From the NCBI GenBank assembly GCA_963713605.1, contig CAVQMO010000010.1, forward strand, positions 640,001 to 704,000: a DNA stretch of 64,000 nucleotides. Direction: 5' to 3'. The notes under the pieces are model-generated. The model made no database searches, was not told where the DNA came from, and saw nothing but the letters and a program-made list of their open reading frames with translations. Every line of letters starts with the position of its first letter. Position 1 is the stretch's first letter. Both the position numbers and the translations under genes were made by a program. Source of the DNA: an uncultured Nitrososphaerales archaeon. Lineage in GTDB: Archaea; Thermoproteota; Nitrososphaeria; Nitrososphaerales; Nitrososphaeraceae. Positions 20,506 through 48,502 of the stretch are shown here, piece after piece.

Positions 20506-21333
20506 TTATAACATTGTGATCAAATTAAATGAATTCTTCCATCCTTTAGGTCCTATCCCAGTAGACCGGACAAGATTTTTTATCTTTGAGTCGCACCATG
20601 AACCATTAGCCTTCTGGACTAGCACAGCAATGTCCATTAATTTTAGCATAGGTAGATCGTTTTCGCTGTCGCCCAATCCAACAAAAATAGTTCTCCTTGG
20701 TTGGTACTTTCGTCTGAAGAGATCAATTAGTATGCGAGTAGCCTTCCCTTTGTCATTTCCCTGTGTAATGTCACTGTACCTTCCCCCATGTATTACTTTT
20801 AGGCCAGTTCTTGTGCAGACTTTAGCTAACCTGCCCAAGTCAGATGGATCTATTTCTAAAATTGTTTCCCCATATTCACGTTTTGACATTCGCCTCGCGA
20901 AGGGCAATGGAATTTGTACCTTCTTTCTAATTTCGTTCAATGCCATATCTGTCGTCCCTTTAAAGTTAATCTGGAGCTCCTCTCTAATCCTTGCTAATCG
21001 CTTTCTTATTTCAATTGAATGACCCCCAATTTCAATAAGGCTATATCCGTTCCTTCTAGTACGTGGTACTGATATTTCAAATTCATCGAAATATCCGTCT
21101 GGGATCACCACCGCCCCTCCATTTTCGACTATGAAAGGGTCAGACAATCGAAGCTTATTTCTGATGTACTCCTGCTCACTGCGTGTCTTGGCAGAACAAA
21201 GAATGACTGGGATTCCCATATTTGCCAACTTCTTTACTAGCAGATCGGTCCCTTCAAATTTTCCGCTGTATATGTCTATAAGAGTGCCATCAATATCGGT
21301 GAAAATTATCTTTTGAACCGTAGAATTATTCAT
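20506..21333 (-). CDS. mpgP: Mannosyl-3-phosphoglycerate phosphatase family HAD-IIB hydrolase
   Basis: FTDIDGTL, CSAKTRSE, PFIVENG, REYGE, HGGRY, DKGKA and GLGDSENDLPML. Confidence 0.85.
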   Translation of the reverse strand: MNNSTVQKIIFTDIDGTLIDIYSGKFEGTDLLVKKLANMGIPVILCSAKTRSEQEYIRNKLRLSDPFIVENGGAVVIPDGYFDEFEISVPRTRRNGYSLIEIGGHSIEIRKRLARIREELQINFKGTTDMALNEIRKKVQIPLPFARRMSKREYGETILEIDPSDLGRLAKVCTRTGLKVIHGGRYSDITQGNDKGKATRILIDLFRRKYQPRRTIFVGLGDSENDLPMLKLMDIAVLVQKANGSWCDSKIKNLVRSTGIGPKGWKNSFNLITML

Positions 21334-24553: not shown

Positions 24554-24653
24554 ACGATGCCTTGAATAATGTCTTCAAATAACGATGCCTTGAATAATGT
24601 CTTCAAATAACGATGCCTTGAATAATGTCTTCAAATAACGATGCCTTGAATAA
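24554..24653. repeat. Intergenic 28-bp perfect tandem repeat, about 3.5 copies
   Basis: Unit ACGATGCCTTGAATAATGTCTTCAAATA at 24554, 24582 and 24610, partial at 24638. Confidence 0.95.
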
Positions 24654-24844: not shown

Positions 24845-25195
24845 CTACTTATTAAAAAAGGCTTGGACATTTGGTCTATATAGATAGTAAATTATTATGG
24901 CATTGATGATAATATGAAATATCAATCCAAGGTTTCCAACTACTATAGAACCTATCCCTACTATTATTCCAATTCCAGATAGAATTAGCGTTAGTGTCCA
25001 AGCCCAACCCTTCCCCTTCCATAACCCGTAAGCCATCAGAAGATAAGCCAGTCCCAGAATGAACAAACCACTACCGATGAAGATTCCAGCTAGTGGAATA
25101 AATAACGTCCCAAATCCGCTGGCAAGGAAAGCAATGCCACCAAGTATGGCAAGCAAAGCAATTATTGTAACCCCTATAGGTCTCTGTTTGTACAT
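24845..25195 (-). CDS. Small four-TM membrane protein
   Basis: RPIGVTIIA, YGLWKGKGWAW and YYLYRPNVQAFF: a common archaeal membrane family pattern. Confidence 0.8.
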   Translation of the reverse strand: MYKQRPIGVTIIALLAILGGIAFLASGFGTLFIPLAGIFIGSGLFILGLAYLLMAYGLWKGKGWAWTLTLILSGIGIIVGIGSIVVGNLGLIFHIIINAIIIYYLYRPNVQAFFNK

Positions 25196-25930
25196 TTTTG
25201 GTAATCTCTGTGAACTATATACAATCCAGAATATAACCAAATTGGAATTTTCTTCTCTAACTGAAATAACTGAAATATATTGAACTAATGATCTTTTTGA
25301 GAACCTCTATATATTAAGCGTCAACTATTTACACGCTGTAGTCTGCCTTGTTTTCAAGATAGCGCGATTTTCTGGATATTTTAGGTGTCTTTAACTTCGA
25401 CAGAGAAGGATTCAACACTAAAGCGAGATACATACCATTGCATTTCATTATGACATCCACCATGGATGAGGGCGTAAGAGATGATTCTCGACTATCGTTT
25501 TCATTCTCGAACATTAGAATTAGTTCCTAAAATGACTATTACGAATGCCCACGGGGAAGGAGATGAAGATAAAGATGAATTGGGATTCGCGATGCAAAGA
25601 ATTCAATTTTCGTAAAATCGGTTAGATCATGCTATTACTGTCATTCGACTGGTATTGTCGAAGCCTTAAAGAGGTAACAGATGAAAAATATGAGCTTCTC
25701 GTATTTTAACAATCTTATAGGTAATTCCAGAATCCCTTTGGTTTCCAGAATGTAATAACAAATAGTTCAAAAAATGAAGGGACTGCTTTTGGAAGGAAGA
25801 AAATAAAGATAAGTAGCATTATCTGCATTTGCAATCACACATCGATTCAAGTAATGCGGTATGGTTACGGATACAAGACTATGGAAGACATATAGCTAAA
25901 ATATATAAGCCATAGCGTTCGGTCAAATTT

Positions 25931-28900
25931 GTGCATATTAGAGGGACGTCTTTACAAACATATTTGTTTCTAACAATGGCGTTGGCCGCGATAGGCCTCC
26001 AGGTCGTGCCAATAAGCCAAATTTTCGCCACATCATCAGCTGGCTCAGCATCTGCAGCGTCGGGAGGATCAGCTTCAGCAGCTGCTGCAGCTGCGGGTGA
26101 CGCGGCTTCAGCAGCTGCTTCAGCGGCAGGTGCCTCATCAGGCAGCGGCTGCATCAGCAGGCGAGGCAGCATCTGCAGCAGCCTCGTCAACAGGAGAAGG
26201 ATCAGCCGCTGCCTCAGCGGCGGGTTCTTCCGGACAACGTTCAGCCGCAGCTGCGGCAGCAGCAGCAGGATATTCAGCTGCAGCGGCTGGAGCAGCCTCG
26301 TCCAACGGTGATGCAGCCGCGGCAGCGGCAGCCGGTGCATCAGCCGCGGGCAGCGGCAGCCGGTGCATCAGCCGCGGCAGCGGCAGCAGCGGGTTCAGCC
26401 GCTGCAGCCGCGGCCGCTTCTGGCTACGAGTCGGCTGCTGCTGCCGAGCAGCAGCAGCGGCAGCTGGCAACGGTGGTTCAGCAGCTGCAACGGCGAGCAG
26501 CAGCCGGGGGAGCTGCTGCAGGTGTAGCAGCTGCCGACGGTTATTCTGCTGCGGCCGCAGCTGCAGCAGCGTCTGGTCGGTCTGGTGCTGCCGCCGCAGC
26601 AGCCGGCAGCACAGGAGCTTCATCAGCCGCTGCCGGTTGTTCAGCTGCAGCCGCAGCTGCAGCAGCTAACGGTGCGGCCGCTGCGGCCGCTGCCGCAGCT
26701 TCTTCCGGCGGTGGATCGTCTTCTGCAGCTGCCGCAGTAGCAGCGGGCCAAGCAGCAGCCTCAGCAGCAGCATCAGGTGGGTGTTCCGTATCAGCAGCTG
26801 CAGCGCAGCAAGTGCAGCATCTTCGGCAGCCGCAGGAGGTTCAGCCCGCCGCAGCCGCAGCCGCAGGAGGTTCAGCCGCCGCAGCCGCAGCTGCAGCAGC
26901 CACAGGAGGTTCAGCCCGCGCAGCCGCAGCGGCAGCAGGGGCGGCTTCGGCAGCTGCCTGCAGCTGGCGGATCATCTGCTGTTGCAGCTGCCGCAGCAGG
27001 TGGCGGCGCAGCCGGGGCGGCAGCTGCTGCAGCCGGGAGTGCAGGCAGCAGCAGCAGCATCGAGCTCAGGGCTTAGCGGCGCAGCGGGCAGCAGCAGCAG
27101 CTGGTGGGGCAGCCGCAGCGGCAGCAGGCAGCAGCTGGTCGGGCAGCCGGAGGCAGCAGCAGCCTCAGCAGGTGGCGGTGCAGCCGCAGCAGCAGCAGCG
27201 GCAGGAAGTGCAGCCGCAGCCGCAGCTAGTGGTAGTGGTGCAGCAGCCGCAGCAGCAGCAGGAAGTGCAGCAGGTGCAGCAGCAGCCGCAGCTGCAGCAG
27301 GTAGCGGCGGTGCAGCAGCAGCCGCAGCCGCGGCTGGCCAGGCGAGCAGCCGCAGCCACAGCATCAGCCGGTGGCTCTGCAGCAGCAGCAGCAGCAGCAG
27401 GTGCAGCAGCATCAGCCGGAGCAGCAGGTAGTTCAGCCGCAGCTGCAGCAGCAGGTAGTGGTGCAGCCGCAGGAGCAGCTGCAGCGGGTGGTGGTGCAGC
27501 CGGCAGCAGCCGCAGCAGCTGGTAATGCAGCTGCTGCAGCAGCATCATCAGCCGGTGAGGATGATGCAGTCAGCGAGCAGCCTCAGCAGCAGCATCCGGT
27601 GGTGGTGCAGCGGCAGGTGCAGCAGCAGGTGAGGGCAGCAGCCGCAGCAGCAGCATCCGGTGGTGATGCAGCAGCAGGTGCAGCAGCAGCCTCAGCAGCC
27701 GCAGGCAGCAGCCTCATCAACAGGCAGTGAATCAGGCAGCAGCAGCAGCAGGCAGCATCATCAGCCGGTGAAGATCCAGCAGCAGCCGGCAGCAGCAGCA
27801 GCAGGGCAGTCAGGCAGCAGCAGCAGCAGGAGCGGGTGAAGCGCGGCAGCAGGAGCAGTAGCAGCGGGTGAAGATCCAGCCGCAGCAGCTGCCCTCAGCA
27901 GCTGAAGAAAATGGAGGCTCAGCAGCCGCCGCAGCTGCCGCAGGTCAAGCGAGCAGGACAGTCAGGCAGCAGGCAGCAGCAGCAGCAGAAGGAGCTGGTC
28001 AGGATCCAGCAGAAGCCGGCAGCAGCTGCAGCAGCGGCAGGCGCATCGGAACCTGAACAGGCGCAAGAAAGCGCTGCCTGGGGCAGCTGGAGCTGCGCAG
28101 ACTCTTCAAACTCAGATCGAAGAGCCTACTGAAGAAGGAGCGCCACAGCAGCAACAACAACAATTAGCACCTCCAGAAGACGGTGTAGCACCTCCAGAAG
28201 ACGGTGTAGCACCTCCAGAAGATGATGAACAACAGCGGCAATTATTGGCCCCAGATGGTGCGCACTCCAGAAGGGGGCAGCTCCAGAGTGTGATCCTCCT
28301 GAAGTACTAAATCCAGATACAAATCAATGCGAAGCTCCTCAAGAAGCAGCTCCAGAGTGTGATCCTCCTGAAGTACTAAATCCAGATACAAATCAATGCG
28401 AAGCTCCTCAAGAAGCAGCTCCAGAGTGTGATCCTCCTGAAGTACCTAAATCCAGATACAAATCAATGCGAAGCTCCTCAAGAAGCAGCTCCAGAGTGTG
28501 ATCCTCCTGAAGTACTAAATCCAGATACAAATCAATGCGAAGCTCCTCAAGAAGCAGCTCCAGAGTGTGATCCTCCTGAAGTACTAAATCCAGATACAAA
28601 TCAATGCGAAGCTCCTCAAGAAGCAGCTCCAGAGTGTGATCCTCCTGAAGTACTAAATCCAGATACAAATCAATGCGAAGCTCCTCAAGAAGCAGCTCCA
28701 GAGTGTGATCCTCTGAGGACTAAATCCAGATACAAATCAATGCGAAGCTCCTCAAGAAGCACTCCAGAGTGTGATCCTCCTGAAGTACTAAATCCAGATA
28801 CAAATCAATGCGAAGCTCCTCAAGAAGCAGCTTCCAGAGTGTGATCCTCCTGAAGTACTAAATCCAGATACAAATCAATGCGAAGCTCCTCAAGAAGCAG

Positions 28901-29523
28901 CTCCAGAGTGTGATCCTCCTGAAGTACTAAATCCAGATACAAATCAATGCGAAGCTCCTCAAGAAGCAGCTCCAGAGTGTGATCCTCCTGAAGTACTAAA
29001 TCCAGATACAAATCAATGCGAATCTCCTCAAGAAGCAGCCTCCAGAGTGTGATCCTCCTGAAGTACTAAATCCAGATACAAATCAATGCGAAGCTCCTCA
29101 AGAAGCAGCTCCAGAGTGTGATCCTCCTGAAGTACTAAATCCAGATACAAATCAATGCGAAGCTCCTCAAGAAGCAGCTCCAGACGGTGGTGCGAGCCCC
29201 AGACGGTGGTGCAGGTCCACAGGCAGCAATTTGCAGCTCCAGAAGATACAACTCCTATCTGTACTCCTCCTGAGGTTTTGAACACTGACACCGGTGAATG
29301 CGAGGTTCCGGAACCGCCTCCAGGTGACAATGAAGCAGTAGCTCCTCAAGTAGGCGTTCCCTCCTGTCTTCCTGGCGAGGTGTTCAATCCTGCCACAGGA
29401 ATATGCGAGGTTACTCCTCCAACTGAATCAGGCGATCAACCACCTAACAATGGTGGAATACCGTCAGGACCACCAGCGAATGGAGAAACTGATGGCGATG
29501 GAGACCAGCCAGACCAAGAGTGA
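25931..29523 (+). CDS. Large secreted poly-Ala/Gly/Ser repeat protein with C-terminal Cys-pair repeats; probably one gene broken by many indels
   Basis: Signal peptide ending QIFA, then about 2 kb of GCN-rich codons giving A(5-8)G blocks in alternating frames, an APPEDGV linker, 13x CDPPEVLNPDTNQCEAPQEAAPE and a Pro/acidic tail. Stop at 29523, followed by a T-tract. Confidence 0.7.
28277..29183 (+). repeat. 69-bp coding tandem repeat, 13 copies
   Basis: Unit GCAGCTCCAGAGTGTGATCCTCCTGAAGTACTAAATCCAGATACAAATCAATGCGAAGCTCCTCAAGAA, without spacers. Confidence 0.95.
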
Positions 29524-30113
29524 TCATTATACGCGAGCAAATCATATACGACCCATTTTTTTTAGAATTTCATATTATTGTCAAGAATGCGAAATATCTT
29601 TGACAACTATGGCGCCATGTCAAGCCGCCGGAGAGTACGTAATTACGAAATATTATAGGTTTACCGAAGCGACAGAATTTCGTGATAACAATATAGAACG
29701 TGGAAGTAGGTAGTGGAGTAGAGTATATAGCTTTTGCTTGAGTAATATTTTATGGAATGGCCTATCTTTCGCCTATCTTCAGGATCGTGAATGTTTTGTG
29801 GTCCCTCTCCTTGAAGTCCAGCTCTAAACACATACAATTAAAACCATACTCTTTTGAAGAATGAAATAATTTGTTATGGTGCTTGAATTGATGCGTGATT
29901 CAATATGCTTCAACCGTGTCCAAGATTGAACAACGTTACCTGTTGTTGAATTCGTGACTAAACTATTCCAATGCTAAATCGACTGCAGTGATATGAAATT
30001 GACATTTCTGCGCTATCACGGCGACAAAATCACGTACGAGAAACGCAGTCGGTGTCGTACATATTTCAAAACCACATTTCGAACTTATTTGAGGAAAATA
30101 TTACTGCTTACAT

Positions 30114-30986
30114 TCAGAAGACCGATTTAAGTGCCTTTACGAATTTGGATGAATCTGAAACCCATCCAAAGACCCCACCTTGCATCTTTATTTGCTTTAT
30201 AGCAGCCTGATAATTGTCGTAGTCAGTAGCTCCAGTACCATCTTTTAGTAACAAGCACCAGTATCCATTGTCGTTGGCTTCCCTCATTATGGTGTGTACA
30301 CACACATCGGTCGTGATTCCTGTTATGATAAGATGGGTAATACCAAGATTCCGTAAAATCAATGGCAGGTTACTCTGGCCAAATGCGCCTTTACCTGCCT
30401 TGTCTACCACATATTCTCCTGGAATTGGATAAACGTCATCTATGATGTCCCAATTTTTTTCACCCCTTATGAGTAGCCTGCCCAAACCTCCTTTAGGAGT
30501 ATCACCGATTCCTATTCCGTTTCCAATAATTTTACTGCGGAGTATTTTATTGTAAGGCGCGTCAGAGAGATCCGGAAGATGCCCTTCCCTAGTATGGACC
30601 ACCTTGATGTCTGTTCCATTTCGAATTGTCTCCAAGGCATACATAATCTGTTTTATGGGAGCCGAGGTTAACCCAAGATCATATCCCATTACATCCACGT
30701 ATCCCTTTGAACCACAAAAATCAACTTGCATATCCACGCTTATGAATGCAGTTCTAGCTGAATCAAATTCAACAAATGCTTTGTCACCAAACCGTGGACA
30801 ATCCTCAACTTCTACTGTTAAAAGTTTACCTTTAACAGGACCATAAAGCCAGGTAGGAAATTTGAATGTATGACTTACCTTAAATTCCTCGTAGTCTCTT
30901 TCAACCTTGCTCACAATTTCATCTTTAACTCTAGTTGACATACTATTTTCAGATTTTCTTGCTCTTAGAGAATTAGTCTTCCTCAT
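30114..30986 (-). CDS. biuH: Biuret amidohydrolase (isochorismatase-family cysteine hydrolase)
   Basis: DMQVDFC..GYVDVMGYDL, HTREGH.PDLSD, DKAGKGAF, GITTDVCV..MREAND and KMQGGVFG closely follow BiuH as recalled. Confidence 0.8.
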   Translation of the reverse strand: MRKTNSLRARKSENSMSTRVKDEIVSKVERDYEEFKVSHTFKFPTWLYGPVKGKLLTVEVEDCPRFGDKAFVEFDSARTAFISVDMQVDFCGSKGYVDVMGYDLGLTSAPIKQIMYALETIRNGTDIKVVHTREGHLPDLSDAPYNKILRSKIIGNGIGIGDTPKGGLGRLLIRGEKNWDIIDDVYPIPGEYVVDKAGKGAFGQSNLPLILRNLGITHLIITGITTDVCVHTIMREANDNGYWCLLLKDGTGATDYDNYQAAIKQIKMQGGVFGWVSDSSKFVKALKSVF

Positions 30987-31274
30987 TAAAATTCGTCACC
31001 AAATTCAGTTACCAGCGTTTCTTTCGTCAACTTGTATAGTCAATCCTGAGAATAACGCTGTTGATGCACAGTACAAAATCCCATTAGATGAGAAGCAAGT
31101 TTGGTCACTCCAGGAGGCAATTCTAAATTTCGATACAATTGACAGGCGATATCATGTCGATTAATATAAGGATTAACTATCATTCTTTCTATTTGAAGAA
31201 AATATGATTAGAAAAAAAAACAATTTCATTTATGCAAAAATCTAACTACGACGTATTAGGGAGCCATAATCAGC

Positions 31275-32755
31275 TCATACGTTCCTATCGCTCAAGCAGG
31301 GTGCAAACATTCTTTCAGAAATTTTTGAATTACTCTCATACACGTTTGCAAGACTAAGAAGAAGACCTTCGTCGAATTCCCTTCCGACGAGCTGAACACC
31401 AACAGGAAGGATGCCGTTTACAAGTCCTGCAGGGACGTTAAGCGAGGGTAGACCTGTGACATCAAAGACAGTGGTAAGTCTACTGAGTGCTATATAGACC
31501 TCCGTATTTTTACCATTGATCTCTATCGAAGTGTCTTCCAACTTGGGAGCACTAATGGCAGTTGTTGGGTACTAACAGGCCATCCAGTCCCCTCATGGCT
31601 CTCAAAAAGTCGTCCTTTAGCTCCTTCTTGTAGCGAAGTGCAGTTATATATTCAACAGCAGTAATTTTGGTCCCTCTTTCAAGCATGGCCAACACATCAC
31701 TTCCGTACTCATTGCGCCTAGAATTCAGCCATGTAGAATGAACCGCTGCCTGATTCACCTAATCGGAACGCCTTCCAAGCGTCAGAAATCTTGTGTGTCT
31801 CATTTAAGGAAACTGGGACCGTTGAGATCCCACATCCGTGCATCTCATCCAAACAGTCTTCAAAAATTTCCATAACGCTTGAATCGATTAGATCAAAAAA
31901 GTACTGTTCGGGTACACCCAAAGTAAATTTTCTAGACTTGTTCAAGGTCTCGGATACAATTTGAAGGTAATTAGGAACGGGCAAGTCCAGTGTTGATTCA
32001 TCCAATATGTCATAGCCAGCAATCGCTTGCAATAGCGCCGCCGTATCCCATGCAGTTCGTGCAATTGGCCCAACATGGTCGATCGATGGGGCCAACGGCA
32101 TCACTCCATATTTGCTGACTCTCCCGTATGTGGGTTTTAAACCGAAAAGCCCACATAATGAGGAAGGAACTCGGATAGAACCACTGGTATCAGTTCCTAG
32201 AGAGCCTACCGCCATCCCTGCGCTTACAGCAACTGCTGAACCACCACTGGAACCCCCTGACATTCTACTAGGATCCCATGGGTTCCTTGATGAGCCATAA
32301 TGGGGATTTATGTTGGTAATTCCGCAAGCGAATTCATGAGTATTGTTCGTGCCCACTATAATTGCCCCAGCTTCCTTGAGTCTTTTCACTACAGTAGCAT
32401 CATAGTCAGGCACAAAGTCTGAAAGTATCCTTGAGCCACTGGTACTTCTTACGCCCCTAACGTAAATTAGATCCTTCAAACTCACAGGGATTCCGTGCAA
32501 TGGACCCAAGTATTTACCATCACGTATATCCACCTCCGCCTTTTTCGCTTCCTTTCTGGCAGAATCTCCTGTCACAGTTATGTATGCATGAACCTCTTCG
32601 TTTAGGTCATTGATCCTCTCAAGTGTTTCTTCAACCAGATCGACCGGTGACAAAGACTTGGAAGAAATGAGCTTGGAGAGCTCATGAATACTGGATCCTA
32701 CAGTTTTTGTACTTGTAAATTCCCGCACTAATCTATTCATTCTCCTGGTTGTCAC
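31275..32755 (-). CDS. Amidase-signature family enzyme (AtzE/AtzF/GatA-like), two indels
   Basis: GPLHGIPVSLKD, GGSSGGS, GTDTSGSIRVPSSLCG and GLPSLNVP...PVGVQLVG across three ORFs. Confidence 0.88.
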
Positions 32756-40208: not shown

Positions 40209-41933
40209 GTGAGCAAGTCCATACCTTCGGTGGATACTCATCAAAATGTTCTAGTTAAGCACAACTATTATAGAGATTCACTTGAACTTCTTAGATTGTC
40301 CGATGAGATTAAGCGATATCCTGGAATAATCGAAGCCTCTCTAGTAATGGGTACTAAAACTAACAAAGAAATCTTGATTAAATTAGGCTTCCCCACCCAA
40401 CATATTGCGAAGGCAGAAAGCTCAGATATGATAATTGCTTTGAGAGCTAAGGATGCCGCCTTGTTACTTGCAACAATCCCAAAAATCGAAGCCATTCTAC
40501 GTGGGACTGGCGGGGAGCAAATCCTAGAAATGGACCATTCCTCGACTAATGAGAGCCGTGATCTTGAGTCGGTGCTTAGATCTGTTAAGGACATTAATAT
40601 TGCATTAATTTCTGTTCCTGGCGAACATGTTAGAAGCTTGGCATTCAAATTGATCGATGAAGGAATTCACCAACAGATTTTCAGCGATCATGTGAGCATA
40701 GATGATGAGCTTGAGATAAAAAGACATGCACTGAAGAATCGTGTATTGATCTTGGGACCAGGTGCTGGGACGTCAATTATCAGCGGAAAAGGAATTGGGT
40801 TTTCAAATGCTGTTGCCACGGGCCCTGTCGGGATTGTAGCAGCAGCGGGTACAGGATTACAAGAGGTTTCCACATTACTAGATCGTTGTGGAATAGGTGT
40901 TAGGCATGGGTTGGGAGTTGGAGGAAACGATCCTAAAGAAAAGATCGGTGGTTTGATGATGTCAGAAGCGTTAAAGATGCTGGATGAATGTGAAGATATT
41001 GATGTGATAAATATTGTGTCAAAGCCTCCGGCAACAAGTGTCCAGCAGAGAATACTTAATCATGCAATTAAGCATGGAAAGAAAAAGTACGTGATGACCT
41101 TTATCGGGCAGCAGCGCATCTATCGAAAATACTAAAGTGAAAAAAATGAGCAGCAGCACCAAGAGGCGTACCAGACAATCAAACAAAATCATTATCGCCA
41201 ACACTCTTACCTCATCGGTCTTTGCAACAGCAAAACTTATCGCTAGCGTGAACAAGTCTGAATCGTCAATGGATCCTATTCATGTCAAGATTGAGGATCT
41301 CAAACGAATTGTAATGGCAGAACGGAAGCGCCTTAGCAATGAACAAAAGTACCTAAGGGCATTGTACACCGGTGGCACTTTTGCATATGAAACACAGGTT
41401 ATTCTTAATGGCCTCGCTATAAGGCCACTCTATTCTAACGCTCCCCTATCCAAGACGCAACTTCTACAAGACGCAATGAAAAGTTTCAAGAATTCAGTTA
41501 TCGATCTTGGTGAGGAAGAGTTTACTAAAGGCAGGGCACATCCAATGATAGACCCCACAATAAGAAAACTCAGAATAAGTGAAGAAGCATCGTATGACGA
41601 CGTTGCGGTAATAGTCCTCGATTTTGTACTTGGTTATGGATCAAATCCTGATCCAGTTGGCTCGGCTATTGATGAAATTAGAAATGCAAAGCTGCCTGGC
41701 CGCGAAAGCCAAGAGACACCTTAGCGTTGTAGCTCATGTCTGTGGGACGCGAAGAGACCCTCAAGGTTATGACCGATCTCTGACAAGATTGAAGGATGCA
41801 GGTGTTCTGGTTCTTCCTACCAATTCCTTCGTTGCAATAGCTGGCTGCAGGTATAGTGGCCAAAGGGCCTATCGACTTCCGAGAGGCATATTCACGGTTT
41901 ATTGGAGAAACCCATCAAGGTGAATTGACATAA
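40209..41933 (+). CDS. fdrA: FdrA / AllF-like acyl-CoA synthetase-fold protein (several indels)
   Basis: YYRDSLELL, MGTKTNKE, ALISVPG, FSDHVS, GPGAGT, GTGLQEV, LYTGGTFAYE, DLGEEEFTKGRAHPMIDP and DFVLGYGS. Confidence 0.88.
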
Positions 41934-42106
41934 TGTCCAACACACAAAAGAAATTATTAGATTCAGATTTAACAGTAATTAATATAGGTGTGAATATCTT
42001 TTATGATGCACTAAAGGTTCAAAATGTTAAAGTCATTCAAGTAGATTGGAAACCAGGTCCTGTGCTTGATAAGCTTAGTGAAGAGATTCTATCAAAAATC
42101 ATGTAA
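41933..42106 (+). CDS. Small FdrA-associated protein (57 aa), missed by the ORF track
   Basis: MSNTQKKLLDSDLTVINIGVNIFYDALKVQNVKVIQVDWKPGP...; the VINIG...F...L..Q...V..VDW.P motif matches the FdrA C-terminal segment; TAATG coupling. Confidence 0.8.
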   Translation: MSNTQKKLLDSDLTVINIGVNIFYDALKVQNVKVIQVDWKPGPVLDKLSEEILSKIM

Positions 42107-42206
42107 TCTTATTCGAAGGCAAGAATGAATGACAAAACGTTAAGTGCTATACAATTTGATGTAAAGGAAGAGACTGACATGGCAATCAAATACATCGAGT
42201 GGAGAT

Positions 42207-43160
42207 ATGTCCACAACAGTGGTAAGCGATGACATGGTAGCCTTCAAGTGCGAGTGCATAGGAGTGTTGTACAAGGATATGCGCAAGTTTACAGCCAAGA
42301 AGTATCTAGTTGGTAAGGTCATAAGCTCGTTTCCCTCTAGTCTCAACATCAAGACTTCAAGAAACGAACTGTTGGTCATAAGTCTAAACAAGATACACTC
42401 TGCTATCACAGTAAATCTGAAGCCTCAATTTAGCAACTCCAATTTCGCGGGACTTATCGATTATGGAGATGATGTAGTCAAATTCCTGAATTCGGTCTCC
42501 ATTGGCGAAAGAATGGAATTGCTTACGGCGAAGAGTATTATCTTTAAAAACTGTTTTGTGGGGCCCACATCTGCTGGATTGTACAAAATTAGCGACGCTG
42601 CAGAAAGAATTTTGAGTTCCCTCATGGAATTAAGGAGGAATGGATGTCTGCTGGAACCGGAGATCACAAATCAAGGCCTTTTTCATCAATTCGTTGCCGA
42701 AACTTCAGAGAATAACATTAGGAACAAGGATAACACTAGATTTGTTAGGACGTTATCCCATTCATTGATGAAAATGTGCGGAAGGGGCCCCGGATTCACA
42801 CCGTCTGGAGATGATTTCATCTGCGGTTTTAGTTCCTTGTTTAATTGGCTATCGCAAAGTCTAAAATGTCCTCCTATATCGCTGCCAATGAAGAGAGTCA
42901 GCGATTTGACCACTTGGAACAGCTTCAAATTCATTGAATATTATCAGAAATTGATCGTTGATGAACAAATCCAAGGTTTGATCAATTCGATTGGGGAAGG
43001 GCGTATTGACCGGTTCATATCATTGTTATCTACGCTAAGCTGCAGAGGACACACATCCGGCATAGATATCAGTACAGGCCTATCTACAGCTTTGTTCACT
43101 TTTTGCGATCGGTTCCTTGGGACAGATCTCTTACCCAAAGTTCAAAGCTTTTCGGAGTAG
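42207..43160 (+). CDS. DUF2877 (YlbF/AllH/YahE-like) protein
   Basis: GRGPGFTPSGDDFICG and GHTSGID motifs. Confidence 0.85.
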   Translation: MSTTVVSDDMVAFKCECIGVLYKDMRKFTAKKYLVGKVISSFPSSLNIKTSRNELLVISLNKIHSAITVNLKPQFSNSNFAGLIDYGDDVVKFLNSVSIGERMELLTAKSIIFKNCFVGPTSAGLYKISDAAERILSSLMELRRNGCLLEPEITNQGLFHQFVAETSENNIRNKDNTRFVRTLSHSLMKMCGRGPGFTPSGDDFICGFSSLFNWLSQSLKCPPISLPMKRVSDLTTWNSFKFIEYYQKLIVDEQIQGLINSIGEGRIDRFISLLSTLSCRGHTSGIDISTGLSTALFTFCDRFLGTDLLPKVQSFSE

Positions 43161-43452
43161 AGAAATCGACAACAAGACCAATATCTGTAACGATGTCAAA
43201 AAGAGCGTGAGAGAATCGAAAATTTATCTTCATTCGAGAATGAAGTGAGTAAGGTGTCAATGTTTAGGAATTTGCTTTATCATCCACTGAAATCGAATCA
43301 GAGATATTAGATCGAATTCAAGAAGTGGTTGCAAGTTACATATCTTATTTTAGATAATTTATATATCAATGTATGCTAGTTTTATGATAAATGCATATTC
43401 TTAGATGTTCTGGGCATTAAATTTAAATAAGATATTCCTAGTTTAGTAACTC

Positions 43453-44427
43453 TTGAGTAATTCAAGATCAGATCTAATCGTTTTTGCTATTGGTGGGAAT
43501 GCTCTTGTGAGATCTGGTGAGAGAGGAACATTTGAAGAACAGTATCAAAACGTACAGATTGCTGTGAAGCAGATCGTTGAATTTATGAAGAGAGATAAAT
43601 GCAGAAACAGAATAGTTCTGACTCATGGTAACGGACCACAGGTGGGAGCAACCCTTGTAAGGCATAGTTTAGCTGACGAATACTGCCCTGCACTGCCATT
43701 ATACGTATGTACCGCAGAAACGCAGGGGTTTATAGGCTATATTATTGAACAAGCATTGCAAGATGAGCTAGACTGTTCAAAAATAAATAAAAATGTTACG
43801 ACCCTCCTTACTAGAGTAGTTGTTGATTCAAATGATAATGCATTTCTCAACCCAACTAAGCCTATCGGAGAAACATTTAGCGACGAAATGACCGAAGTCC
43901 TCTTGAAAAATGGAATAGTACATCTTGAAAAACGAAAGGTAGGCTCTGACGGCACAAAGTTCAAACTCGTAGTTCCATCACCAAAGCCTATCACCATTGT
44001 AAATTATGAAGCAATTCGTTCTCTAGTAGATGCTGGATTTATTGTCGTCGCATGCGGGGGCGGAGGAATTCCAGTGATGAAGGAGAATCGGAATACCTTA
44101 GGAGTCGATGCTGTGATAGACAAAGACCTTGCCAGTGAAAGACTAGCAACTTCAATAGGTGCCTCAACTTTGGTGTTACTAACCAACGTGGATGGAATAT
44201 ATAGGAACTATGGAAAGAAGAATCAAGAGCTTATAGGTACGGTCAGTATAGGAATGAATCTCGAACAGGAATTAGGGTCGCAGGACCTAGAAAGTGGTAG
44301 CATTGGTCCCAAAGTGCAAGCGGCCATCTCATTTATAAGAAACGGAGGAAAGGAGGCAATAGTCTGCTCTCTTCAACACCTTTCTGATGCATTAGCCGGT
44401 ATATCTGGGACACATTTCTTTAGATGA
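43453..44427 (+). CDS. arcC: Carbamate kinase
   Basis: AIGGNAL, THGNGPQVG, AETQGFIGY, NPTKPIG, VVPSPKP, GGGGIPV, AVIDKD and GSIGPKV. Confidence 0.95.
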   Translation: MSNSRSDLIVFAIGGNALVRSGERGTFEEQYQNVQIAVKQIVEFMKRDKCRNRIVLTHGNGPQVGATLVRHSLADEYCPALPLYVCTAETQGFIGYIIEQALQDELDCSKINKNVTTLLTRVVVDSNDNAFLNPTKPIGETFSDEMTEVLLKNGIVHLEKRKVGSDGTKFKLVVPSPKPITIVNYEAIRSLVDAGFIVVACGGGGIPVMKENRNTLGVDAVIDKDLASERLATSIGASTLVLLTNVDGIYRNYGKKNQELIGTVSIGMNLEQELGSQDLESGSIGPKVQAAISFIRNGGKEAIVCSLQHLSDALAGISGTHFFR

Positions 44428-44451
44428 CCTTTACTAGAGGGAATATTCACA

Positions 44452-45709
44452 ATGAACAATAAAACTAGAATCAAAGAGCGTATAGAAGAAGCTAACAGTA
44501 AGGCCCTCGAACGGATGCGTTTATCCAGGCCCACTCTTGTCGATATTAAATATGCAAGGGATATTCTGCCTCAAATGAAGAAGAATTCAATTTTTCATGC
44601 AGGTCCTCCCATTGATTGGGAAAGGATGTGTGGCCCATTGCGCGGAGCAATCGTTGGGACTATGATCTTTGAGGGATTAGCGACGACTTGGAATGATGCT
44701 GTAAAATTGATAAGGCAGGGCGACATCGAATTCTCCTCTAATCACGATCATGATGCAGTAGGTCCTATGGCAGGGGTAATCTCGCCATCGTTGCCTATTC
44801 TTGTTGTTAAAGATCAAAGTAATGGCAAGACCTGTTTTGCCCGATTCGTAGAAAACAGAGTGCAATTTGGACTTTTCGATAAGGAGTCAGTTGATGTTCT
44901 TAGATTTTGGTCTGAAAAACTATCCCCCTTATTGGGCAAAGCTATTCGTAAGAGTAGGGGAATCGATCTTAAACCGATAATGGCTAAAGCATTGCACATG
45001 GGAGACGAACTGCATAATAGGCCAGCCTGCAGGCACGTTACTATTTGAAAGTACCATATTACCTCATCTATTGGTAGTCTGTAGTCTAGATGAAGTAGGA
45101 GAGATTACAAGATATCTTTCAGAAAATGATATTTTTTTCCTGTGCGTGAGTATGGCTGCATGCAAAGCAATCACAAAAGCCGCTCATGGCATCCAATATA
45201 GTACGTTAGTAACAGTTATGGCAAGAAATGGAACTAACTTTGGAATAAAGGTGAGTGGTTTAGGGAATGACTGGTTTGTCGGAGAGGCAAACATGATTAA
45301 GGGATTGTATTTTCCGGGTTATGGCCCTGAAGATGCTAATCCTGATATTGGTGATAGTGCCATTACAGAGACTGCTGGTATTGGAGCATTCGCTCTGGCA
45401 GGATCTCCTGCAATATTGGCGCTCATTGGTGGATCTGCCGAAGATGCTATAAAGTACACATATGAGATGCGCAAAATTACGAATTCACTTAATGAAACAT
45501 TTACCTTGCCAATCATTAATTTTCAAGGTACTGCAACTGGTATTGATATCCGAAAAGTGATGAGAACCGGGATAACTCCTGTTATCGATACGGCTATAGC
45601 ACATAAACAAGCAGGAGGGGGCTACATTGGAGCAGGTCTAGTACGGGCACCTTTGGAGCCCTTCAAAAATGCTTTACACGCTTATGGTAAAAGATATAAA
45701 TTGGTTTGA
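44452..45709 (+). CDS. DUF1116 (YlbE/AllG/YahG-like) protein (indels near 45030-45070)
   Basis: HAGPPI.W..MCGPLRGA, AVGPMAG, ALHMGDELHNR, MARNGT.FGI, DIGDSAITETAG and GITPVIDTAIAHK. Confidence 0.9.
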
Positions 45710-46754: not shown

Positions 46755-48502
46755 GTGCTTAAAAGAAATTCTGTACAATCGTATATTCTAATAGCTATAG
46801 CACTTGGAGCAATAACACTCCACATAGTGCCAACGACTCAGGTATTCGCAAATTCTTCTGATTCAACAGAAGCAGCCGCAGCTGCCGCAGCAGCAGGTGA
46901 AGCAGCTGCAGCAGCTGCAGCGCAGCTGGTGGATCTGCAGCGCCGCGAGCAGCAGCTGGTGATGCAACGCAGCAGCAGCGGCAGCAGCTTCAAAGTATGG
47001 CTCGGCAGCCTCAGCAGCGGCAGCTGGACATGCAGCGCAGCAGCGGCAGCTGCGAGCAGGTGGATCAGCCAGCAGCGCAGCAGCAGCAGGTAGCGCAGCA
47101 GCCGCAGCAGCAGCAGGCGGATCAGCCGCAGCAGCAGCAGCGAGCAGGCAGTGCAGCAGCAGCAGCAGCGGCCGCAGGCAAATACGGCTCAGCCGCAGCC
47201 GCAGCAGCCGGCAGCGAGCAAGCGGTAGCGGTGCTTCAGCAGCCGCAGCGACGAGCAGCCGGCAAGGGAGCAGGCAGCAGCAGTAGGAGCAGCAGCGGGC
47301 TATTCCGCAGCTGCTGCTGCCGCCGCATCCTCTTCGGGACACCACGGATTAGCAGCAGGCAGCAGCTGGAGCCGCGTCAGGTGGAGGAGCAGCAGCAGCC
47401 GGAGCAGCAGCAGGCGGATCAGCCGGAGCGAGCAGCAGGAGCAGGCAGTGCGAGCAGCGAGCAGCAGCAGCTTCAGGAGGAGGTTCTGCAGCAGCAGGAG
47501 CAGCAGCAGGTAAGGGAGCAGCCAGCAGCGAGCAGCCACGCGGCAGGCGGATCAGCCGGCAGCAGGCAGCAGCAGCCGGTGGTGGAGCAGGAGCAGCAGC
47601 TCGCATCAGGTGGTTCTGCGGCAGCAGCGCAGCAGCCGGTCGGTGGAGCAGCAGGCAGCAGCGCAGCTTCAAGCGGAAATGGTGGTGCAGCGCAGCCCGC
47701 AGCCGCCTCAGGTGGCGACAATGGCTACAAGAACTATGGCAAAGACAAAGACAGTTCTTCAGCAGCTGCAGCTGCAGCAGCATCCGAAGATTCAGGACGC
47801 AGCAGCCGCAGCAGCAGGTGATGCAGCAGCAGCAGCAGCATCAGCAGCAGGTGGTTCTGCAGCAGCCGCAGCCGCGAGCAGGCGATGGAGCTGCAGCCGG
47901 GGCAGCGCGAGCCGGCGGAAACGGCGGATCTGCAGCGCAGCGCAGCCGCCTCAGGTGGCGACAATGGCTACAAGAACTATGGCAAAGACAAAGACAGTTC
48001 TTCAGCAGCCAGCCGCAGCGCAGCAGGAGCATCCGAGGATTCAGCAGCCGCAGCAGCCGGAGCATCCGAAGATTCAGCAGCGCACAGCGGCAGCAGCAGG
48101 CGCATCCGAAGATTCAGCAGCGCAGCAGCAGCAGCATCCGAAGATTCAGCAGCCGCAGCCGCAGCAGCAGGTGATGCAGGAGCAGCAGCAGCAGCTGCAG
48201 CAGGAGCCAGCGACGATCATGGTAAGAAGAGGTCTGGAGATGACAGCTCTTCAGCAACCGCAGCAGCGCAGCAGGAGATGACGCAGCAGCAGCAGCCGCA
48301 GCAGCTAGTGATGACAAAGATGAGAAGAAGAAGGGTGACCACAATGACGGAAAAGGATCTAAGGATGAATCTAGCAACAGATCTAATGATGGCGGTGAAG
48401 CGAATGATGGCGATAGCGAAGAAAGCAGTGGCGGCGAGGGGAGAAAGCAGTGGCGTCGAAGAAAGCAGTAGTAGTAGCAGCAGCAACAGCGACGACGAAT
48501 AA
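46755..48502 (+). CDS. Second secreted poly-Ala/Gly/Ser repeat protein with charged tail; one gene broken by indels
   Basis: Signal peptide homologous to that at 25931, A(5-8)G blocks, D/E/K/S-rich C-terminus; stop at 48502 followed by a T-tract. Confidence 0.7.

Follow-up and report, generated by a model that had tools for sequence, protein, structure and literature searches.

The window analysed here, a stretch of 64,000 nucleotides from one contig (G000:C10) of a 4.09 Mb assembly in 15 contigs, carries on its forward strand a gene of about 1,198 codons (25931-29523) that begins with GTG and runs to a stop codon at 29521-29523. A purine-rich BRE/TATA-like box (25898..25909) lies 22-33 nt upstream of the start codon, and was found at an equal distance in 15/15 family genes inspected; its position implies that the transcript would be leaderless, in archaeal fashion. 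The GTG codon opens a Sec-type signal peptide of 33 residues ending in QIFA (25931..26029; cleavage site placed by eye) that is conserved across 13 aligned N-termini, and a signal-peptide-like N-terminus was recognized by eye in each of the 13 long members aligned and in eight short ones. It is followed by a core of approximately 680 codons of Ala/Ser blocks (26030..28060), interrupted by some 22 frame breaks in this assembly and open in the orthologs L017 and L095, and by an acidic Glu/Gln/Pro-rich linker with 21-bp repeats (28061..28276), which is likely disordered. There then follow 13.2 copies, 98% alike, of a 69-bp (23-residue) acidic repeat with two Cys residues (28277..29184); these repeats, whose copy number and type differ among orthologs, are likely to form small disulfide hairpins. 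Two more Cys hairpins, an acidic Pro/Gly/Asp tail and the stop codon complete the gene (29185..29523), and a run of eight T residues beyond it (29556..29563) is likely an archaeal terminator; all of these features lie on the forward strand. No transmembrane or sorting anchor was found in the product of 25931-29523. The preliminary description had correctly located a signal peptide, Ala/Gly blocks, an acidic end and high GC content at this position (68% in the core compared with 41% for the window), but it had ended the gene at 28260, ahead of the Cys repeats and the stop codon, and it had missed both these C-terminal repeats and the multi-gene repertoire described below.

Upstream, on the reverse strand, lies a divergent gene for a small DUF2127-like membrane protein (24845..25240; match under the cut-off) that marks the conserved locus and is at most a candidate part of the system, and a perfect 28-bp tandem repeat of 3.6 copies occupies an intergenic position (window 24554-24653). 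A gene for an isochorismatase-family cysteine hydrolase and an adjoining amidase gene (window 30114-32755) are kept downstream of the gene in relatives, and possibly serve organic-nitrogen degradation. A HAD-family phosphatase (Hydrolase_3; window 20506-21333), which we take to be mannosylphosphoglycerate phosphatase-like, is kept close to the locus in L016. Beside the long genes of the family, no genes dedicated to assembly or secretion were found; the neighbours there encode unrelated enzymes and membrane proteins.

A frame-tracking translation was used to read the gene, with X-type letters at 23 breaks (up to 28290). These breaks, together with an excess of GCA codons, could mean that the locus is a pseudogene, an expanded GCA microsatellite or an artefact of assembly, with no protein product. 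Part of the stretch is covered by 20 of 21 sequencing runs (11 studies, mostly of soil and rhizosphere metagenomes) and none covers half of it; the contigs of four runs were compared with the stretch and none spans the gene, which, with the partial RNA cover, also speaks for such a reading. The preliminary description had foreseen that accurate reads might retain the frameshifts. Instead, among the indels listed (12 of 36), a frame-restoring change was present at seven of eight sites in independent short-read contigs, comprising 26141, 26445, 26495, 26803, 27502 and 27571/5 in DNA runs and 27634 only in a contig of an RNA run, possibly from a paralog; the indel cluster at 27805-27812 does not by itself match a predicted frame restoration. 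Frame breaks also interrupt ordinary genes of the window. Open frames were found in relatives, of 890 aa (L019), 792 (L022), 424 (L031) and 951 stop-to-stop (L095), and of 782 aa in L017, where the contig edge ends it, while those of L021 and L030, from two other genomes, are frame-broken like G000. Shared upstream genes flank L016, L017, L033, L095 and L127, and shared downstream genes flank L026 and L095. By a crude count in which low-complexity alignment inflates identity, pN/pS was 0.10-0.23 in 6/6 pairs. Because of the compensating short-read indels, the open syntenic orthologs and pN/pS values well under 1, the frame breaks of this copy look like assembly errors; given also the conserved TATA box and signal peptide and the splitting of ordinary genes, the pseudogene or artefact reading is largely refuted for the family, and we regard it as scarcely credible. 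The GCA bias noted earlier is genuine (GCA makes up 229 of the 413 Ala codons here and 60-78% of those in the cores of 12 relatives, against 40% genome-wide), but its use as evidence of selection on the protein did not hold; such selection is indicated by the excess of synonymous change.

Transcription of the gene (25931-29523) is weakly indicated. One RNA run gave contigs, themselves strandless, at 27937-28098 and 28078-28194, the second without differences, and the same run gave none over the intergenic stretch or the 5-prime end of the gene. In RNA run X20 the upstream gene is covered and this gene appears only in short partial pieces, and RNA run X16 provided no cover over 25060-26139.

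The 681 positions of the core, in the frame-tracking read, are 58% Ala, 15% Gly and 14% Ser, and they contain 54 Ala/Ser runs of 5-11 residues, mostly 6-10, each ending in a G-X, G-G-X or longer Gly turn; the turns are where polar residues concentrate, and Asp/Glu/Pro turns appear towards the end. Ala, Gly and Ser together account for 87-96% of 12 same-genus cores, and 509 of 627 Ala/Ser runs in 18 cores are 7-10 residues long. A period of about nine residues had been proposed, but the Gly-to-Gly spacing here has a median of 10 and modes of 10-11, and Gly autocorrelation in the cores of intact relatives peaks at 10-11 and 21-22 and is negative at 16-17. Unit lengths range from 9 to 12, and Gly spacing is more regular than in shuffles in 11 of the 12 same-genus cores (equalled in no more than 13 of 500 shuffles), the twelfth being equalled in 120 of 500. 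Polar or charged residues stand within two positions of a Gly in 79% of 520 cases, compared with 44% in shuffles, and the Ala blocks are thus without a polar face. Tight turns are mostly G-S, G-D, G-Q, G-N, G-K and G-E, plus G-A, and the commonest linkers between blocks have 1-4 residues. Tight and wide turns alternate (0.47 compared with 0.39; 0/1000 shuffles, a significance overstated by the relatedness of the sequences). Among these same related sequences, the lengths of the two arms show a weak correlation across tight turns (rho 0.20, n=194) and none across wide ones (0.06, n=498). No enrichment of substitutions at i,i+2 was found in the cores (z -0.7 and -1.2), and i,i+4 pairs are slightly enriched in one trim (z 2.0). 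Since the sequences are kin, these statistics do not constitute independent tests. Run length, polar placement, turn alternation and the slightly better match of arms across tight turns favour strand-turn-strand units buried on both faces.

The module is not single-copy. Fifteen motif clusters and one further locus give about 16 loci in G000, of which 13 were read as four long genes, one medium and eight short. One paralog lies in the same window (46755-48502, forward strand), with the same signal peptide, an Ala/Gly core, Lys/Tyr/His turns and a charged tail; it is frame-broken here and intact in L031 (424 aa) and L054. A gene cluster upstream of this second paralog (window 40209-45709), two genes of which are frameshift-split, is kept in L031 and presumably encodes FdrA-like, carbamate kinase-like and YlbE-like proteins of allantoin/oxamate-type nitrogen salvage. 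A SAM methyltransferase gene stands directly upstream of another long paralog (L019:7871-8683, L022:3000-3812), a locus kept in three genomes. In relatives the block is found in long proteins whose acidic tails vary, in medium ones that have Lys/Tyr/His turns, in tiny peptides made of a signal, a His/Lys patch and four blocks (L061 type), and in peptides with Asp/His/Cys tails; it also occurs behind an Ig-like domain in fusions (MG2/YtkA-like, under the cut-off), and L050 holds an exact 10-residue Gly-Asp-Ser-Ala7 array. Within 8 kb of G010 (L058:881-8175) are four module-bearing genes, secreted as judged by their signal peptides, for an Asp/His/Lys repeat protein, an Asp/His/Cys peptide, an Ig-like fusion and a His/Lys peptide. 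P0009, P0015 and P0016 comprise a short natural form of about three blocks, together with secreted proteins rich in Cys and Pro that have the signal peptide in common but not the Ala core; tails and cores behave as shuffled modules.

An exact DNA pattern of the module matched 13 of the 14 g1 genomes examined and six of seven of genus g3. It also occurs in one of four g30 genomes, there in a different repeat type. With this pattern, which is derived from the family and misses diverged forms, none was detected in 176 genomes of 15 other Nitrososphaeraceae genera or in 400 other genomes of the phylum; a stricter pattern matched 5/5 g1 genomes and 1/396 others. The survey covered archaeal genomes of the phylum. 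By eye, 36 of 40 pattern-matching loci in JGI metagenomes look like family members, and four at 56-60% GC were rejected, as were the GC-rich, microsatellite-like match in G371 and the Ala repeat of L029 and L072, which is of a different type with a period of 15-20. The latter secreted proteins (L029:5684-8320 in G015, and L072 in G310; genera g3 and g30) have repeats that start Ser-Gly-Ala-Thr/Ser-Pro and look helical. A provirus (L133:2434-2814; IMGVR_UViG_2773857912_000002) encodes a protein of 126 residues in which an acidic helix precedes seven Ala/Gly-turn blocks that follow the family's grammar; it lacks a signal peptide, lies near a short helix paralog, a glycosyltransferase and an ArpU regulator, found no homologues among 8000 candidates, and is possibly a bacterial (Bacillales-like) counterpart.

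The core has no matching family in Pfam, NCBIfam, PDB or Atlas, and with residues 1-300 of L017 as query no core homologue was found among 7999 candidates, most likely because of low-complexity filters. The ESM Atlas gave no feature match and TM < 0.4 for L019, tblastn against phages and plasmids gave no matches to the family, and none of 610 candidates in viral contigs was a related locus. An N-terminal profile recovered nothing beyond 15 short proteins that carry this signal peptide, and a short-peptide profile recovered 30 unnamed or mis-named proteins, with unnamed Nitrososphaerota clusters as Atlas neighbours. No prior description of an alanine-rich, poly-alanine, silk-like or functional-amyloid protein was found among the papers listed in the literature, mainly open, on Nitrososphaeraceae and ammonia-oxidizing archaea (AOA); the single paper with a poly-ala match concerns the Nitrosopumilus S-layer. 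A family invisible to standard homology searches and broken in error-prone assemblies is a blind spot. The open orthologs and an amoA-like gene in the genome bear out the earlier claim of a real, conserved, signal-peptide-bearing poly-Ala/Gly protein in AOA, and the loci together form a real, conserved and undescribed multi-gene family of signal-peptide-bearing Ala-block/Gly-turn proteins.

The host belongs to the Nitrososphaeraceae. GH5 was found in 11 of 14 g1 genomes and three adjacent CBM32 domains in 4/4 g1 genomes tested, features that fit the NS-delta clade as described in PMC11131427; because of this domain content, the carriers likely belong to the NS-delta/TA-21 group. NS-delta is equated with TA-21, and counted among the most abundant and still uncultured nitrifiers of farmed soil, in PMC12823411.

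An extracellular structural role, as had been proposed from the outset, would seem the best reading of these sequences. The beta structure proposed with it fared less well in structure prediction: AlphaFold2 returned helices only with alignment A2 (pLDDT 61, pTM 0.31), and 22-residue helices broken at wide turns with the single sequence L032 (pLDDT 56, pTM 0.38), and both low-confidence models count against a beta fold. So do the substitutions, which show no strand alternation at i,i+2, and the slight i,i+4 enrichment; the lack of an Asn/Gln ladder, of dedicated assembly or secretion genes beside the long genes and of more than weak signs of transcription also tells against a silk- or curli-like reading. 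We nonetheless give about an even chance to a convergent silk- or curli-like, beta-stacked extracellular fibre or coat, insoluble and with the Ala blocks as strands. Soluble Ala-rich helices have a polar face, and the beta reading is favoured over a soluble helix because the blocks here have none. The G-S, G-D, G-Q, G-N, G-K and G-E turns are compatible with two-residue hairpin turns, and the L050 array and the four-block peptides are hard to build as long helices. The gene has its own TATA box and a signal peptide, with no anchor, and its product would be exported by Sec and cleaved. Each Ala block of 7-9 residues would then become a strand, with turns or arcs at the Gly clusters; a unit of 21-22 residues would hold two blocks, both of its faces burying methyl groups and the ribbon edges bearing the polar residues, and the resulting beta-arches or hairpin ribbons would stack sheet on sheet. 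The acidic tail and Cys hairpins may remain on the outside, where they would slow aggregation and bind cations or surfaces. The short paralogs, in which three to five identical blocks stand beside His/Lys/Asp/Cys tags or an Ig-like domain, may co-assemble through those blocks and act as nucleators, caps or display adaptors. The likely use would be as a hydrophobic matrix that binds cells together and attaches them to particles of soil; that the acidic tails gather cations as the Nitrosopumilus S-layer does (PMC11153153) is speculation.

The core may alternatively be helical, with Ala helices of about 22 residues (two blocks with a central Gly as close-packing point) or short capped helices forming a rod or solenoid that would serve, once secreted, as a stalk or surface layer on which the acidic/Cys tail is displayed. 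To this, which we consider rather unlikely, point both AlphaFold2 models, the Gly spectrum peak at 10.8 residues, equal to three helical turns, and the spacing of 41-49 residues between paired Cys in several cores, about two such helices. Ser, Asp or Asn after Gly and Glu-Asp-Pro turns also read as helix caps, the weak Foldseek (E 8-10, the low-confidence helical model giving nothing at E <= 0.001) and phmmer (E 0.17) matches are designed helical repeats, and related genera hold the helical-looking Ala repeat of other type (L029, L072). However, Ala-rich input biases structure predictors to helix and the confidence of the models is low. The spectrum has no 3.6 peak, there is a depletion of non-Ala pairs at i,i+3 (z -2.4), the variable unit length and the want of a polar face for solubility fit a helix poorly, and so do the uniform L050 array and the four-block peptides. 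The low confidence of all models, the tolerated gain and loss of units and the long disordered acidic tails would also suit a mostly disordered or transiently helical protein that forms a hydrogel, coacervate or surface film (a desiccation protectant or surfactant) with no ordered fibre and any beta form secondary. Against this, which we hold improbable, block length and polar placement are tightly constrained, pN/pS is low, and a coil with approximately 68% Ala dissolves poorly.

Ice protection, a further proposal of the preliminary description, received little support. The signal peptide, the approximately 68% Ala and a period close to 11 do recall the fish type I antifreeze proteins, in which an unbroken Ala-rich helix carries Thr every 11 residues, and insect antifreeze proteins include flat beta-solenoids. 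Thr, however, makes up 0.9% of core residues and is not periodic, whereas Gly (16%) occurs in clusters with frequent Gly-Gly breaks, and the type I likeness was rejected; moreover, some 16 paralogs with metal-tag and Ig fusions misfit a single antifreeze role. An ice-binding protein is thus very improbable.

Whatever the fold, the family offers concrete and easily made candidates (peptides of 50 residues) for how the carriers attach, aggregate and survive drying. If the blocks are beta-stacked, poly-alanine silk would have evolved outside animals, as a functional amyloid without Asn/Gln ladders that uses ordinary Sec export and provides a natural plug-in display scaffold of interest for protein materials; if they are helical, this is still an undescribed repeat fold. 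On the beta-stacked reading a more ambitious proposal, tentative and on balance doubtful, is that of a prokaryotic silk, an all-alanine zipper material made from 10-20 secreted proteins per genome. Long members would build the fibre or sheath, and short ones would plug in via the same blocks and expose acidic, His/Cys or Ig-like heads, which would fasten cells to particles of soil and collect ammonium or copper; this would represent an independent origin of poly-alanine silk and a candidate reason for resistance to cultivation and to drying.

The family resembles curli in geometry, and lacewing silk or mussel preCol in composition, but lacks the features that define them. The curlin repeat, according to PMC10192328, comprises two 7-residue motifs and X-G-X-X arcs over 23 +/- 5 aa, in variable number. 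Curli (CsgA/CsgB) resemble the present proteins in their secreted subunits, variable repeat number, and major and minor paralogs; their unit of about 22 residues, with two strands of about seven and Gly-containing arcs, may have a counterpart in the 21-22 periodicity and Gly turns here, for which AlphaFold2 returned no beta-arch fold. The cores differ, however, in having no Asn/Gln ladder and no polar outward face, and the host is an archaeon; neither the curlin motif N-x-psi-x-psi-x-Q nor Q-X10-Q (PMC10192328) occurs in 22 cores, no curlin Pfam match was found in seven long or medium members scanned, and no csg-like operon lies beside the genes. The two-Cys hairpin spacing of the tail repeats alone recalls CBM14/peritrophin-A (CBM_14; E 0.01 for the 23-residue repeats and 0.003 for the tail hairpins; 16.4 and 18 bits against a cut-off of 22.1, on a partial profile), but they amount to half a domain in 13 tandem copies without an aromatic residue, and are not kept across orthologs.

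Archaeal functional amyloids, which according to PMC7582709 include the MspA sheaths of Methanosaeta and Methanospirillum and an unidentified matrix amyloid of Haloferax, share an extracellular structural protein proposed to be beta-rich; they belong to a different phylum, and family and PDB searches with the present proteins gave no match. In spidroins (MaSp) and mussel preCol, poly-Ala blocks about as long as those here are joined by Gly linkers; in preCol they coexist with His-rich domains (PMC4944945), as in the short paralogs. Their Gly-rich spacers are long and amorphous, whereas the linkers here have 2-4 residues, and no spidroin terminal domain or collagen was matched by Pfam in the whole proteins L019, L022 and L031. 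Lacewing cross-beta egg-stalk silks (MalXB1/2, ChryC1-3) have a Ser/Gly/Ala core with a 16-residue periodicity (PMC5485732), and share a signal peptide, a repetitive core, two-strand periodicity and a Cys/Asp-containing C-terminus; the period here is 21-22 rather than 16, Ala reaches 62-72%, the proteins are acidic rather than basic and prokaryotic, and no homology is apparent. Most likely the family works in the manner of silk or curli, though it is a member of neither group.
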